Of a DNA stretch of 64,000 nucleotides, positions 23,567 to 52,009 are shown piece after piece (position 1 is the first letter of the stretch; every line of letters begins with the position of its first letter). Made by a program: the position numbers and the translations under genes. The DNA is from Patescibacteria group bacterium (GTDB lineage Bacteria > Patescibacteriota > Minisyncoccia > JAHIHE01 > JAGLIN01), in contig JARGGI010000003.1 in NCBI GenBank assembly GCA_029210775.1, forward strand, positions 4,512 to 68,511, given 5' to 3'. The notes below the pieces were generated by a model, which did no database searches, was not told the DNA's origin, and saw nothing but the letters and a program-made list of their open reading frames with translations.

Positions 23567-23584
23567 TAAAAAAATTTAAAATAA

Positions 23585-23618
23585 AATAACGACACAGAAC
23601 TTATGTCGTTATTTTTTG
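23585..23618. terminator. rho-independent terminator after the aminotransferase gene
   Basis: AATAACGACA-cagaactta-TGTCGTTATT followed by TTTTT; an A-rich run precedes it, so it may act in both directions. Confidence 0.7.
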
Positions 23619-23746
23619 ATCTATAAAATTTTAAATAAATAGAATTTTTTAAATTACAAATTTAATATACTTGCCACCCTGAGCTTGTCAAACTATGATA
23701 AATTTAGCTATTTCGTATTTTAAAGTAGAATTATAATAAAGTTTAA

Positions 23747-23781
23747 GTGTGGTTTAAAAGTTTTTTTCTTCTAAACCACAC
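23747..23781 (-). other. hairpin (GTGTGGTTTA / TAAACCACAC, 15-nt loop) 16 nt downstream of the MCCCC mini-ORF
   Basis: Seen directly. Confidence 0.4.
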
Positions 23782-23796
23782 TCCGTTACCTACTTT

Positions 23797-23814
23797 TTAA
23801 CAGCAACAACACAT
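23797..23814 (-). CDS. five-codon mini-ORF MCCCC with a strong SD (AGGAGGAGG, 7-nt spacer)
   Basis: Minus strand reads aggaggagg-aaatatt-ATG TGT TGT TGC TGT TAA; there is no downstream gene on that strand. Confidence 0.25.
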   Translation of the reverse strand: MCCCC

Positions 23815-23910
23815 AATATTTCCTCCTCCTGTCTTCGTTAATTATAATAGTTTAAAGACAGAAATTTAAATGCGATATTAGTATTCAAATTTCAATCTTA
23901 AAAAAATAAG

Positions 23911-23952
23911 TTAGGGATTTTAAATTTTTTTAATTATATAAAACCCCTAACA
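23911..23952 (-). terminator. rho-independent terminator of the small gene 23947..24087
   Basis: On the minus strand, GTTAGGGG-loop-CCCTAAC followed by TTATTTTTTT; overlaps the stop codon. Confidence 0.5.
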
Positions 23953-24087
23953 AGATCCTCCTCTATCTCTTCTATAGAAGTGATCTATAGAATCCGTTAT
24001 ATCTTTTGGAAGATCCTCTACATTTATCCCAAGTACACTTGCGATTTTTTTCTTTGTTTGATTTACTTTTTCTATTTTATCGTTCAT
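23947..24087 (-). CDS. small protein (46 aa; MNDKIEKVNQTKKKIASVLGINVEDLPKDITDSIDHFYRRDRGGSC) with an HTH-like IASVLGINVEDL segment
   Basis: Perfect SD GGAGG 6 nt before the ATG; its own terminator follows; the track's longer 79-aa version is an in-frame upstream extension through the tRNA-like element. Confidence 0.5.
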   Translation of the reverse strand: MNDKIEKVNQTKKKIASVLGINVEDLPKDITDSIDHFYRRDRGGSC

Positions 24088-24122
24088 CAAAATCCTCCTT
24101 TTTTTTATTTTTTGTTTTTGAA

Positions 24123-24224
24123 GATGGGGATGGGACTTGAACCCATGAAAGACAAGTTGCATCTCATCCGCATTCCCAATAATCAACTTTTATACATGAA
24201 AAGCTAATTAACTTTGCTACCCCA
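24123..24224 (-). other. tRNA-like element: canonical T-arm (ATGGG-TTCAAGT-CCCAT) and acceptor-like 3' strand (CCCCATC) with a partly complementary 5' strand (AATGGGG); D and anticodon arms non-canonical
   Basis: Folded by eye; the 3' half is tRNA-like and the 5' half does not fit a cloverleaf. Possibly a tRNA pseudogene or integration remnant, or a structured 5' leader of the adjacent small gene. Confidence 0.3.
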
Positions 24225-24238
24225 TTATATATACAAAA

Positions 24239-24264
24239 AACCGCGCACAACAGGCGGGTTTATA
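24239..24264. terminator. bidirectional hairpin terminator (AAACCGCGC-acaaca-GGCGGGTTT)
   Basis: GC-rich stem flanked by an A-run upstream and a T-run downstream. Confidence 0.45.
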
Positions 24265-24426
24265 ATTATCATCAAATCTATAAGTTAAAATTTATATAAC
24301 ACTTAAAAACCAACCTGTTTACAGGATACTACAACAACAGCAAATTTGGCTTTTAAATGATTTCATATACATATTGTTTAACTATAATTTAATATTAACA
24401 TATATAAATTATCTGTCAACTTTTTT

Positions 24427-24455
24427 TTGACAATATTATTTATTAATTATATTAT
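24427..24455 (+). promoter_or_regulatory. near-consensus sigma70 promoter (TTGACA-N17-TATTAT); the -35 is part of the TGTCAA-N8-TTGACA inverted repeat
   Basis: Seen directly; an SD and ATG follow about 30 nt downstream. Confidence 0.5.
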
Positions 24456-24484
24456 ATTAATAATACAAAAAAGGGAGGATTCTA

Positions 24485-24801
24485 ATGAATGATGATATAT
24501 TTAGTTCAATAACATTTACCGAGAGAGAGAGAGAGAGGGATATAAAAATAATGATTTTTCCATTATAATTACAAACAAATACAAGGAATTCTTTGATGAG
24601 AGAAAGGTTTATTCTTGTAGCGAACTAATAAATATTCTTGAAAAAATTGTGTCTCGAATTCATCATGAAATCAGAGAGCTTAATACAAAAGGTGAAAAAT
24701 TTATTATTCATCTATATGAAACATATTCCCCAGTTTTTGAAAGCATCCATATAGCAACCACTGAGCTTATAAAAATTGGGAAAGAATATAGATTGAAATA
24801 A
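24485..24801 (+). CDS. small hypothetical gene whose frame is broken at a (GA)8 tract; the current frame gives 27 aa (stop at 24568), the downstream open frame runs to 24801
   Basis: SD AGGGAGGA 7 nt before the ATG at 24485. The frame is open through MNDDIFSSITFTERERER, then a stop; the +2 frame is open for ~75 codons (...FSIIITNKYKEFFDERKVYSCSELINILEKIVSRIHHEIRELNTKGEKFIIHLYETYSPVFESIHIATTELIKIGKEYRLK) with no start codon of its own. A terminator lies right after 24801. Loss of one GA unit would fuse the two frames. Confidence 0.5.
24521..24536 (+). repeat. (GA)8 dinucleotide microsatellite inside the 5' end of a coding frame
   Basis: gagagagagagagaga followed by ggga. Confidence 0.9.
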
Positions 24802-24803
24802 AC

Positions 24804-24823
24804 GGAGCATTGCTCCTTTTTTT
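24804..24823. terminator. hairpin terminator (GGAGC-att-GCTCC followed by T7) between convergent genes
   Basis: Seen directly. Confidence 0.55.
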
Positions 24824-25832
24824 ATATTTTTCTTAAACCTCTTTTTTTTATTTTATCCTTTGCAACTTTCTGAAGATCGTCATGTTGGTCATATTCATCA
24901 ACTATTTCAGATCCAATAATTTCTTCAATTACATCTTCAATTGTCACTATTCCACAAACCACTCCGTGTTTATCAATAACTATAAATAAATGATTTTTAG
25001 TAGCTTTAAAAGCATTGAGTAAATCATCAAGGGGTTTATCTGAATCAACAAAAATTACATTCTGTCTTGCAATATTACCAACAGTCTTATTTTTATAATT
25101 ATTAGAAATTAAATCTTTTACATATAACATACCGACTATATTATCAAGATTCTGTTTATACACTGGTATTCTTGAATGACCTCTCTTGCAAATTTTTTCA
25201 ATGTTTTTTGAAGTTAGTTTCTGATCAAATGGTACTGCAAAAATTTCCGTTCTAGGAGTTAATACATCATTGGCTGTTTTATTAGAATATGAAAGAGCTC
25301 CTTTAATAATCTTCTCTTCATCAATATCTATATCACTATCTTTTGAATCCTCATGATCCTCAATAATCTTCATCAACTCATGTTTTGAATATATTGTTGG
25401 CATTTCTTCACCAAGACTCTTATTTAGAGCATAAGCAATTGGGAAAGACACTGGATAAAACATATAGGTAAATATTCTAACAAGCCAAGCAAGTTTTGAA
25501 CCAATTTTTAAAGCATGACGTGAAAACACAGCCTGAGGAACTATCTCTCCAAATATAACAATTAATGACGTCGCAATAATTCCTGCAATAACTCCAGAAA
25601 CAACACTACCAAGAAAAATTGATAGTGCAGAATTTACAGCAACATTTCCAATTAAAAGTGTGCAAAGAAGTAAATTTCCATTTTTTCGCAAAGCATAAAC
25701 TTTTTGAGCATCTTTATTACCTATTTTTGCCTTTCTCTCTAAATCTTCTTTATTTAGACTAAAAAAACCCAGCGTTAGACCAGAAAATATAGCTGAGAGT
25801 GACAGTAAGATAATAACAATAATATACCCCAT
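24822..25832 (-). CDS. CNNM/CorC-family membrane protein (DUF21 TM domain plus CBS pair)
   Basis: Four N-terminal TM helices; tandem CBS motifs (IPVYKQNLDNIVGMLYVKDL...; HLFIVIDKHGVVCGIVTIEDVIEEI); no CorC_HlyC tail. Confidence 0.8.
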   Translation of the reverse strand: MGYIIVIILLSLSAIFSGLTLGFFSLNKEDLERKAKIGNKDAQKVYALRKNGNLLLCTLLIGNVAVNSALSIFLGSVVSGVIAGIIATSLIVIFGEIVPQAVFSRHALKIGSKLAWLVRIFTYMFYPVSFPIAYALNKSLGEEMPTIYSKHELMKIIEDHEDSKDSDIDIDEEKIIKGALSYSNKTANDVLTPRTEIFAVPFDQKLTSKNIEKICKRGHSRIPVYKQNLDNIVGMLYVKDLISNNYKNKTVGNIARQNVIFVDSDKPLDDLLNAFKATKNHLFIVIDKHGVVCGIVTIEDVIEEIIGSEIVDEYDQHDDLQKVAKDKIKKRGLRKI

Positions 25833-46015: not shown

Positions 46016-47311
46016 TTATTCACCGAAAATTTTGGCATTCATCGCAATTTCTTTGAGTATTGTCTGCATAAACCTACATTTTTGCCTATCTATCTCCTTG
46101 CCGGAGATAATCTGGAATGCCGGACAAGGACCGCCGCAAATATGACGTGCTTCGCATTTACTACACTGGCTGATTCTCTTAATAGGAATATTCATTTTCC
46201 CCTTGAAATTAGTCAGAAGGACATCATTCCAATTTTGAGAGCAAAAAGACAAGTGCCCCTCAGTGCTAATCGAAGCCATTATATACCCATTATTAAACAT
46301 ACAAGGACAGTGGCGCTTAATATTATTTGCTAAAGAAAAAAGTATCGGCGACGCTGCGGAGTCTATTGTAACTTTATTTTTCCTAGCAATACGTACAAGC
46401 TTCACTAATATTTGTGCATATTTTTCTCCATCAATATTCCATGCCAAAGACCGATAATGAAATGGTGTGTTTATCGTTATCGTTTTAGAAGGAAATGTTT
46501 TTAATGTGCCACGAAAAATTTTCGGCAATTGATCCAAAAAACCGGCATGCGGAGTTATAAGAACATGCGTATCTATTCCCGCTTTTATTAAACGATAGTA
46601 ATTATGTTTTGTGTCCTTAAAACTGCCACGCCCGTTTTTATAAATCCTGAATTTATTGTTAATATTTTCTGGCCCATCTATAGAAACTCCAATTTTAAAA
46701 TCATTCTTCTTAAAAAACCTTATCATATTATCATTAAGAAATGTAAGGTTGGTTGTCATTGTATAAAACGGCTTAATCATCTTCCTTGTTTTGACAGCTT
46801 CATTAACCATGTCTACTGTCCGTTTGATATGATCAAACCTAATCAATGGCTCACCCCCAAAAAAATGATACGTAATTTTTTCTGATGTTCCGTAAGAAAT
46901 TGTTTTCTTAATTACAGTCTCAAGTGTAGCATGAGACATTGTTTTTAAATTATTACGATTCTTCGTAACAAAACATTCGGGGCATTTTAAATTACACTCC
47001 TCAGTAAGAGCAATTCTAAAAGCACGGATATCTGGGTTTAAATTGAAAACTTTCGGATAAGGTATAGATTTCGATCGACTAAAAAAACCAAGCTCGTCAA
47101 GTTCTTTAAGCACACGCCATGCCTCCTTTTGTTTAGAAAGTGGCATGGAAATTATTACCTTTTTTGGATCTCTGGCAATTTTAAAAGCGTTTAATATGAC
47201 AAGATGAGAAGAACCGACTTCCGCATAATTCAGTGTCTCTTCATCAAAAATAGTGATCTTCCCTCTTGATCCGGAATAAACCCGAAAAGGATGAGCTGAT
47301 ATTTTTTTCAT
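46016..47311 (-). CDS. radical SAM/SPASM enzyme with a ~110-aa N-terminal extension (RRE/PqqD-like position) before the CxxxCxxC cluster
   Basis: CNLKCPEC at aa ~115; C-terminal SPASM motif CSKCEARHICGGPC; start trimmed to MKKISAHPFRV so that it begins 4 nt after the stop of the upstream rSAM (the track ORF 46016..47410 includes an in-frame overlap). Confidence 0.8.
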   Translation of the reverse strand: MKKISAHPFRVYSGSRGKITIFDEETLNYAEVGSSHLVILNAFKIARDPKKVIISMPLSKQKEAWRVLKELDELGFFSRSKSIPYPKVFNLNPDIRAFRIALTEECNLKCPECFVTKNRNNLKTMSHATLETVIKKTISYGTSEKITYHFFGGEPLIRFDHIKRTVDMVNEAVKTRKMIKPFYTMTTNLTFLNDNMIRFFKKNDFKIGVSIDGPENINNKFRIYKNGRGSFKDTKHNYYRLIKAGIDTHVLITPHAGFLDQLPKIFRGTLKTFPSKTITINTPFHYRSLAWNIDGEKYAQILVKLVRIARKNKVTIDSAASPILFSLANNIKRHCPCMFNNGYIMASISTEGHLSFCSQNWNDVLLTNFKGKMNIPIKRISQCSKCEARHICGGPCPAFQIISGKEIDRQKCRFMQTILKEIAMNAKIFGE

Positions 47312-47315
47312 ATAA

Positions 47316-48239
47316 TTATTTCCAAAATCTAGGATTATCAAAAAGCGAAACGCAATGAACACCGAAACAATTAGGTAGTTTTTCACTTTTCGATAATATA
47401 TTATTATCAATATTAGCTATTATCTCAGAAACCGGATCATTGAATAGATTACCCAGTTTTATATCTGGCCGATGGAAACACGGCGTCAAATCACCTTCGG
47501 CGCTACAAACAAAATACTCCTTACCCATACAACAGAGGGCGTTCGGTAATAGATTCTTGTTATTAAAAATCGCTTCCGTAAGCGCTATATAATCCTTTAT
47601 ATGCGTTGATTTATTTTTTTGCGAAATTTTTTTTATGGCATTAAAAATAATATTGTCTTTATTCTCTGTATTTAATTGCTGCATTTTTCCTTTTGGAATA
47701 AAGACTTCTTGAAATCGAATATCCGAAATACCAAGACCTTGAAGCCAATTAATAGTTTCATCTAATGTGGAAGCATTTTTCTTTGTTACTACCGTCGTCG
47801 TCGCCACATTTCGATAGCCACGCGAAATCAATCCCTTAATAGCATATACGGTGTCATCAAATCTACCACGTTGTTTATTGTGTACTTCTCTTATATGAGA
47901 ATCTATGGAAATATCAATCCTGTCCACATTGAGCCTTATTATCGTATCCAAATCGGCATCAGTAAGAAAAGTTGCACTGGTGTTTATTATTACCGGAATT
48001 TTTTTCTTTTTTATTTCACGAATAATAATATATGTTTCTTGCTTTAATTTTAAATGCAAAGGTTCGCCACCGGTTAAAATAACTTTATCAAAATTAAGCG
48101 CTTCTATTTTATCAGCAAAAATCTCAGCTTTATCTGGACTAATTTTTGAGGCTACTCGTTTTTGATATCCAGTCGCATAAAAACAATAGGCGCAACTAAT
48201 ATTACATAAATTATTTACCATCAAAAATAAACAGCGCAT
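47316..48239 (-). CDS. radical SAM enzyme with a short twitch/SPASM-like C-terminal Cys cluster
   Basis: CNISCAYC at aa 12-19; C-terminal CCMGKEYFVCSAEGDLTPC...CFGVHC. Confidence 0.8.
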   Translation of the reverse strand: MRCLFLMVNNLCNISCAYCFYATGYQKRVASKISPDKAEIFADKIEALNFDKVILTGGEPLHLKLKQETYIIIREIKKKKIPVIINTSATFLTDADLDTIIRLNVDRIDISIDSHIREVHNKQRGRFDDTVYAIKGLISRGYRNVATTTVVTKKNASTLDETINWLQGLGISDIRFQEVFIPKGKMQQLNTENKDNIIFNAIKKISQKNKSTHIKDYIALTEAIFNNKNLLPNALCCMGKEYFVCSAEGDLTPCFHRPDIKLGNLFNDPVSEIIANIDNNILSKSEKLPNCFGVHCVSLFDNPRFWK

Positions 48240-50578: not shown

Positions 50579-52009
50579 TTAATAATCAAGCAATCTTTTT
50601 GATTCTCTATGCTTTCTAATTTTTTCAAGTGCTTTTGCTTCAATCTGCCTAATTCTTTCTCTTGTCACACCAAATTCCTGTCCAATTTCCTCCAAAGTAT
50701 GAGTCACTCCATCTTCAAGTCCAAAACGTAATTTCAAAATTTTCTGTTCTCTTGGAGAAAGTTCAACTAAAATTTCTTTCACATACCCCTTAAGTAGCTG
50801 TCTTCCTGCAGATTGAGATGGAAGAACTGCATCAGTGTCTTCTATAAAATCACGAAGAGTACTGTCGTCATCATCTTCACCGACAGAAGTCTCAAGTGAA
50901 ACCGTATCTTGAGATATTTTCATAATATGTCTAACTTTTTCAACTTCAATATTCATTTCAGATGCAATTTCCTCTGGTAATGGTTCTCTTCCTAAATCCT
51001 GAACAAGACGCCTTGTTACCTGAGAAAACTTATTTATTGTTTCAACCATATGAACTGGAATTCTAATCGTGCGAGATTGATCTGCTATTGCTCTCGTAAT
51101 CGCTTGACGAATCCACCATGTTGCATATGTTGAAAATTTATATCCCTTTCTATAATCAAATTTTTCAACAGCTCTGAATAGTCCAATATTTCCTTCTTGA
51201 ATTAAATCCAATAAACTCAAATTTGCACTTCTTCCAACATATTTTTTTGCAATACTTACAACCAAACGAAGGTTTGCTTCAGAAAGCATCTGCTTAGCGG
51301 CCACATCACCCTTTTCTTTTCTTTTTGATAAAGAGACTTCTTCTTCCCCAGTCAAAAGAGACACTCTTCCAATCTCACGCAGATACATTTGAACAGAATC
51401 GCTGGAAATATTATCAAGAGACAATTCTCTTATTTCTTTTTCTACTTCTTTCTTGGTTTTTTTACTAACATCTTCTTTGGCATCAGAAACATCAATTATA
51501 TCAACATTGCTTACTACCTTTATATTTTCTTGTTCAAATTTGTCATATAGCAATTCAAGTTGACCAATATCATTTTCAATATCAGGAATTATTTTTATAA
51601 TCTCTTCTTCGGTTACAAAACCTTTCGATTTTCCCCTACTCATTAATTCTTCAATTTGATTATTAATGTTTTCATTTTCAACATCCTGCTTCTTTAAGTC
51701 TTTCTTTTTCAATTTTCCTGGCTTTATGCTCTTCCCTTTTTGCTTTCTTTTAAGTTTTGAAGATTTTCTCGCAATTGATTTTTTTGCTATTTTCTCTTTT
51801 TTCGCTTTTGCTTTTGCTTTTACAACAGTTTTAACTGTTTTCTTTTTCGGAGTTACTTTTTTCACTGTTTTCTTTTTTTTTGCTTTTGCTGTTACAACAG
51901 TTTTAGCTTCTTTCTTTTTCGGAGTTACTTTTTTCATTGTTTTCTTTTTCATCAATTTTGATTTTATCAATTTAATTGTTTTTTTATTTTTTATTTTTTT
52001 TGTTTTCAT
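50579..52009 (-). CDS. rpoD: RNA polymerase sigma-70 factor RpoD with a Lys/Ala/Thr-rich tandem-repeat N-terminus (histone H1-like)
   Basis: Regions 2-4 are conserved ([27 protein letters not shown]; 4.2 [23 protein letters not shown]); N-terminal [18 protein letters not shown] repeated twice (a ~63-nt tandem repeat near 51820-51960). Confidence 0.9.

Follow-up and report, generated by a model that had tools for sequence, protein, structure and literature searches.

A 64,000-nucleotide (nt) stretch of a Patescibacteria group bacterium contig (JARGGI010000003.1, positions 4,512 to 68,511; hereafter the window, G+C content 30.6%) was analyzed for a small candidate gene whose reading frame is interrupted by a perfect (GA)8 repeat. 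The candidate gene is on the plus strand and falls inside the longest part of the window to be without a long open reading frame (ORF), namely the 1,255 nt from 23567 to 24821. The first-pass annotation had described a near-consensus promoter, a Shine-Dalgarno (SD) sequence, an ATG followed by 12 codons, the repeat, an early stop, a second open frame, and a terminator, all of which were found where it had placed them. The sigma-70-type promoter (24427-24455) is composed of a -35 box, TTGACA (24427-24432), a 17-nt spacer, and a -10 box, TATTAT (24450-24455), and matches the consensus at 11 of 12 positions; downstream of it, the SD sequence GGAGG (24474-24478) is positioned 6 nt before the ATG at 24485. 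From this start codon, frame A runs through the initial 12 codons (24485-24520, MNDDIFSSITFT) into the (GA)8 tract, a simple sequence repeat (SSR; 24521-24536) that would serve as the frame-switching element. Past the tract, translation in the assembled form continues through an out-of-frame tail (24537-24568) to a TAA stop codon (24566-24568) for a product of 27 amino acids (aa), the putative OFF product. Frame B is open from 24505 to 24798, and its last 87 codons, with no stop among them, plus a TAA (24799-24801) make up the part downstream of the tract (24538-24801) that is accessed with (GA)7 or (GA)10. An intrinsic terminator (24804-24823, -7.2 kcal/mol) follows, with a hairpin (GGAGCATTGCTCC, 24804-24816) that begins 2 nt past this TAA and is trailed by T7. 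The terminator is bidirectional and common to a convergent CNNM/CBS (HlyC/CorC-type) transporter gene on the minus strand (24822-25832), which is outside the switch and was used as the positional anchor for orthology. Equipped with a promoter, SD sequence, and terminator of its own, the interval 24427-24823 makes up a monocistronic unit. The CNNM protein shows 100% identity to NCBI entry MDF1498034.1, which derives from a metagenome-assembled genome of the Patescibacteria group. The NCBI accessions of a 46-aa minus-strand ORF (MDF1498033.1) and the CNNM gene (MDF1498034.1) are consecutive, and the candidate gene between them is therefore unannotated at NCBI.

Codon usage and homology were examined for evidence that the locus is coding. 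When scored by the codon usage of the window itself, the downstream frame reached 0.217 bits per codon, a value that exceeds those of 99.9% of off-frame windows and corresponds to the 11th percentile among windows of real genes; the other five frames scored from -0.38 to -1.61. An exhaustive HMMER search of 1.84 billion representative proteins, for which the query was limited to the downstream segment (24538-24798), returned a single match: P0122, a protein of 103 aa (E = 6.6e-8; query residues 6-85 vs target residues 22-101). The fusion produced by (GA)7 was found to align with all 103 residues of P0122; the alignment has a single gap and 43% identity (E = 6e-21). The 12 residues that precede the tract had been absent from the query and aligned as well, with 6 of 12 identical to residues 1-12 of P0122 (MNDDIFSSITFT vs MIEDFFLTITFA). 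Since P0122 aligns over both halves, the halves descend from one ORF, with the ATG at 24485 marking the ancestral start region. An internal start for the downstream frame was considered and rejected, as no ATG, GTG, or TTG precedes 24649 and the N-terminus of the ortholog fits the upstream frame.

The gene for P0122 is present on L048 and L049, two short metagenome contigs from ENA, as one uninterrupted ORF that has neither a repeat nor a shift site. Its promoter (TTGACA-16-TATAAT) matches the consensus at 12 of 12 positions, with 32 nt from the end of the -10 box to the start codon compared with 29 nt in the window; its SD sequence, AGGAGGA, is 7 nt before a GTG start; and its terminator, a hairpin (GGGAGCAAAGCTCC) followed by T8, is directly past the stop codon with a stem that is conserved with the window. 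The convergent CNNM gene beside the ortholog is 77% identical to that of the window. Sites with at least 11 of 12 promoter matches numbered 11 in the window compared with 6.4 ± 2.7 in shuffles, so that the consensus match of the window promoter is, taken alone, weak evidence. The equal layout of promoter, SD sequence, ORF, and terminator in the ortholog indicates that the promoter and terminator of the window are conserved features, beyond consensus matches. Judged by these alignments and by synteny, the small gene is real and P0122 is its intact positional ortholog. The earlier proposal of a gene that looks living, and not a relic, was supported by the alignment of an intact syntenic ortholog with the (GA)7 fusion, which extends over the junction; the interrupted frame is not common to the ortholog, which reads through the position without a repeat.

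Two side observations concern these promoters. The two ortholog contigs, which derive from two samples of one study, were identical through the gene and diverged just upstream of the -10 box (L048 1-40 vs L049 1-36), with a perfect -35 TTGACA in L049 and not in L048, a difference explained either by polymorphism of the promoter or by an artefact at the contig end. In the window, a divergent promoter was detected on the minus strand (TTGACA, 24419-24414; TG-extended TAATAT, 24397-24392; element 24225-24419), and its -35 box and that of the small gene stand back to back as an inverted repeat, TGTCAA-N7-TTGACA (24414-24432), that could be an operator common to the two promoters.

Searches of the databases with the fused protein and its parts yielded one homolog, the intact P0122. 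A profile search with both family members did not find a third, and a word-indexed search of 5.8 billion proteins with the fused protein returned no homolog. The fused protein had no match in Pfam, and nothing significant for the protein was found in PHROGs, PADLOC, or the PDB sequences; the same was true of tblastn against phages and plasmids and of a scan of viral contigs. The only match from the metagenome scan (L047) was dismissed as spurious, being a Bacteroidetes-type outer-membrane protein with the octapeptide YKNNDFSI in common by chance. The closest other CNNM proteins, 81% identical, came from Paceibacteria/Parcubacteria metagenome-assembled genomes (MAGs). Among ten loci of CNNM relatives (L001-L004 and L050-L055), the flank was rearranged and the CNNM gene was adjoined by rpsP, or by a gap and then a peptidase M20 gene. 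The small gene is lacking in several close relatives and would therefore be dispensable there. The family is patchy, fast-evolving, orphan, and lineage-restricted.

The (GA)8 tract is 100% pure and is the sole dinucleotide run of more than 4 units in the window, while runs in the related loci (453 kb) reach a maximum of 5 units. By our own arithmetic, about 1e-5 tracts of this kind are expected from base composition, and (GA)8 is more than chance. The tract was rebuilt in silico at different lengths, and the prediction that losing one GA or adding two would join the halves proved correct: 7 units gave a protein of 104 aa and 10 units one of 105 aa, while 5, 6, 8, 9, and 11 units were out of frame with products of 17-29 aa. 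The unit length of 2 is not a multiple of 3, so that gain or loss of a unit toggles between a full-length and a cut-off product. Slipped-strand mispairing alters the length of such tracts orders of magnitude faster than point mutation. Within the tract, glutamate is encoded by GAG three times, a codon that accounts for 19% of glutamate codons in the genome (106 vs 444 GAA); this use of the minor codon marks the tract as a DNA-level repeat born of slippage, as opposed to a Glu-Arg peptide repeat under selection. The bases of the ortholog at this position (AGC AGA AGC AAA GAA GAC) are purine-rich and non-repetitive, and the repeat is lineage-specific and derived, as is the frame break. The tract corresponds to codons 13-18 and is within a hydrophilic, poorly conserved part of the protein. 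In Campylobacter, dinucleotide tracts of at least 6 units are called phase-variable by PhasomeIt (PMC6321876), a cut-off that (GA)8 passes, and an N-terminal bias of SSRs has been found to mark switching genes (PMC3315296).

The fused protein has a mass of 12.5 kDa and an isoelectric point of about 6. Its maximum Kyte-Doolittle hydropathy over 19 residues is 0.7, which argues against a transmembrane segment, and its acidic N-terminus argues against a signal peptide; the protein is thus predicted to be soluble and of cytoplasmic type. AlphaFold models were of low confidence, with predicted local distance difference test (pLDDT) scores of 66 for the downstream segment and 51 for the ortholog, too weak to use; they suggest a fold in which strands at the N-terminus precede two long helices. 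In the low-confidence model of the ortholog, the residues equivalent to the tract are in an unstructured stretch between strands 5-8 and 23-29. A Foldseek search against the PDB gave no match below E = 4.

We consider it an even chance that the locus is an SSR-switchable gene whose OFF allele is dominant in the sampled population. In this model, a purine-rich stretch at codons 13-18 would have turned into a perfect (GA)n in this genome. With the 8 units assembled, translation from the ATG at 24485 would end after 27 aa (OFF); with 7 or 10 units, the gene would be read through (ON); and slipped-strand mispairing would regenerate ON cells when one unit is lost or two are gained. The model takes the tract to be hypermutable in this organism, ON and OFF cells to coexist, and switching to be kept up by selection. 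Only the tract is affected at the locus; the downstream frame, codon usage, promoter, SD sequence, and terminator are all intact. We regard as rather doubtful the wider proposal that episymbionts of the Patescibacteria (candidate phyla radiation, CPR) use SSR contingency loci, with (GA)n here a selectively maintained stochastic ON/OFF switch of a cytoplasmic protein that is small, evolves fast, and may act in interplay with hosts or phages. As an extension of that proposal, the OFF allele could be leaky, with pairing kept when the transcript or a transfer RNA (tRNA) realigns by 2 nt on the repeat.

Several observations count against a maintained switch. The species is represented in the protein databases by a single contig, with the next CNNM relative only 81% identical, and the small gene was not found beside the CNNM gene in the ten loci encoding CNNM relatives of 73-81% identity. 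One long SSR was present in the 64 kb of the window and none in the 453 kb of relatives; a single long SSR gives no sign of a genome-wide contingency strategy. The product had no match to a surface, restriction-modification, or defence family in Pfam, PADLOC, or PHROG. Two usual traits of contingency loci are hence missing, namely (i) further long SSRs in the 64 kb, and (ii) a surface or restriction-modification product. In addition, the 87 codons of the downstream frame offer 40 one-step routes to a stop codon, and under neutral decay the frame would stay free of stops with a probability of 0.51 after 5% divergence and 0.26 after 10%. The open frame thus bounds neutral decay only to roughly below 10-20% divergence, and a recently dead gene would look alike.

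Such a recently dead gene is the substance of one rival explanation, in which a chance repeat expansion in a dispensable accessory gene was followed by an inactivating one-unit slip, so that switching would have no biological role and the gene would be heading for loss. We rate a fresh pseudogene of this kind as somewhat unlikely, with evidence on both sides. The frame is disrupted relative to an intact homolog, having 2 nt in excess of the in-frame form, and the intact downstream frame tolerates up to about 10% neutral divergence. The gene is also missing from most close relatives, evolves fast (43% identity vs 77% for the neighboring CNNM), and is set in a 1.25-kb, ORF-poor, rearranged junction, with (GA)8 the sole long SSR of the window. 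Pseudogenes are linked to long SSRs in some reduced genomes according to a statement in PMC4516964, with Mycobacterium leprae as a cited example; the present locus resembles such SSR-associated pseudogenes in that a dispensable gene of a reduced genome is frameshifted at a long SSR. Unlike them, it carries no extra lesions, and its signals for expression are undamaged and shared with the ortholog. No second lesion was found in the locus, in which the promoter, SD sequence, start codon, and terminator are laid out as in the ortholog; the downstream codon usage is still gene-like; and the perfect purity of the tract makes it a reversible hotspot whatever selection does.

A technical origin of the frame break was also weighed, in which the true tract would be (GA)7 or (GA)10 and the gene intact, or a mixed population would have been collapsed to one length by the assembler. 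The break falls exactly in the repeat, a type of sequence prone to polymerase stutter and consensus errors, the source is a MAG, and NCBI annotates no protein here, leaving the locus uninspected. Countering this, 138 homopolymers of at least 7 nt (46 of them at least 8 nt) were found inside intact long ORFs, and no other split genes were detected in the window, as the suspect overlapping ORF pairs were separate, complete genes. The clean homopolymer record and the lack of split genes indicate that the consensus is not prone to indels and that an error is less likely; a tract of 16 bp, moreover, generally fits within single short reads. The assembly error that the first-pass annotation had raised as the trivial alternative is improbable in light of the homopolymer record. 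Far less probable is recoding, by which (GA)8 would be the normal form and the full-length protein would be made through programmed -1 ribosomal frameshifting or a 2-nt transcriptional or translational realignment. A -1 (= +2) shift anywhere in 24505-24565 would fuse the frames, a 2-nt realignment on the GA repeat should keep perfect pairing, and 3′ of the tract are five consecutive A residues (24544-24548) and an AU hairpin, which is weak. In dnaX-type genes with a programmed -1 frameshift, one protein is made from two overlapping frames, and the locus is like these genes in that its two overlapping frames together encode one protein. Unlike them, it has no slippery heptamer (no X XXY YYZ was found in the 24505-24565 overlap) or stimulatory structure, the fold of its messenger RNA is unremarkable (z = -1.1), and its ortholog is a plain, unshifted single ORF. 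Programmed frameshifts are normally conserved. We find it scarcely credible that no single gene exists, with the 27-aa ORF and the downstream frame unrelated or the region non-coding. The lack of a protein annotation at the locus and the failure of initial searches to find a homolog fit such a view, which is contradicted by the intact 103-aa syntenic ortholog that aligns both halves and is further at odds with the gene-like codon usage and with the absence of any start codon in the downstream frame until 24649.

The switchable-gene reading has close parallels among known systems. In Helicobacter pylori, sabA, oipA (hopH), hopZ, and babA have CT dinucleotide repeats in the 5′ coding region (PMC3960876). 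As in these genes, the repeat described here is of the AG/CT class and is in the first tens of codons, a one-unit change shifts the frame and truncates the product, and the promoter and remaining gene are untouched. The H. pylori genes differ in that they encode secreted adhesins of a host-adapted pathogen, with measured switching and many loci per genome, whereas the gene of the window encodes a soluble orphan protein of an environmental Patescibacteria MAG, with one tract in 64 kb, and is known from one sequence. The locus is similarly like the Campylobacter loci of PhasomeIt (PMC6321876) and those of the prokaryote catalogue (PMC3315296) in having a perfect intragenic tract of at least 6 units with a non-triplet unit, an N-terminal position, and a longest frame backed by a homolog; those catalogues rest on tract-length variation across multiple strains, compared with one sequence here. 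A full-text literature search found no paper on SSR phase variation in Patescibacteria, and a second literature search, on mismatch repair in the group, turned up nothing usable. Slipped-strand bet-hedging is documented mainly in Haemophilus, Neisseria, Campylobacter, Helicobacter, and mycoplasmas. The mechanism class is thus well known, and what would be new here, if confirmed, is the lineage and the involvement of an orphan cytoplasmic protein instead of a surface antigen. If the switch is genuine, slipped-strand bet-hedging would reach past host-adapted pathogens to the ultra-small, uncultured Patescibacteria, and the CPR would gain its first described phase-variable gene; the host dependence and phage exposure of the Patescibacteria make stochastic switching plausible. 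If the gene is merely inactivated by a slip, or the break is a consensus error, the finding is ordinary. The locus is also an example of how annotation pipelines silently drop orphan small genes that are broken at repeats.

Other elements were noted near the small gene on the minus strand. Within the element governed by the divergent promoter, a 15-codon mini-ORF (MKSFKSQICCCCSIL) extends from an ATG at 24350-24348 to a TAA at 24305-24303 and includes four consecutive cysteine codons. Its stop codon is inside a hairpin (CCTGTAAACAGG), which is followed by a second terminator (CCGCCTGTTGTGCGCGG + T6). The fold of this region had a z-score of -2.9, and an Rfam match resembling Trp_leader was detected at 18.8 bits, below threshold; the element looks like a cysteine-sensing leader/attenuator or a tiny cysteine peptide. 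The interval 23745-23830 contains a second mini-ORF, MCCCC, with a strong SD sequence (AGGAGGAGGA); a 16-bp hairpin (23783-23745) comes after it, and no gene is downstream on the minus strand. The two CCCC mini-ORFs are within about 540 nt of one another, while (TGY)4 runs are expected from composition at about 0.06 per window; none was found in the related loci. Between them, at 24122-24226, a tRNA-like element was identified with an acceptor stem (AAUGGGG/CCCCAUC), a D-stem (UAGC), and a perfect T-arm (AUGGG UUCAAGU CCCAU), and with about 49 nt inserted mid-element. It scored 24.4 bits on the Rfam tRNA model (gathering threshold 29) and had a weak match to transfer-messenger RNA, while ARAGORN reported nothing; possible identities are a disrupted tRNA, a pseudo-tRNA, or the remnant of an integration site. 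The 46-aa ORF noted above (MNDKIEKVNQTKKKIASVLGINVEDLPKDITDSIDHFYRRDRGGSC, 23950-24087) has a strong SD sequence (AAGGAGGA), its own hairpin terminator, and a gene-like codon score of 0.41 bits per codon, and corresponds to a hypothetical protein at NCBI that forms a singleton cluster.

Elsewhere in the window, two adjacent radical-SAM genes (46016-48239, minus strand), one with a SPASM domain, form a pairing typical of peptide-modifying maturases and may be of interest beside the cysteine-rich mini-ORFs. Finally, a 72-bp tandem repeat of about 2 copies with 93% matches (51806-51966) was found inside a long minus-strand ORF (50579-52009).

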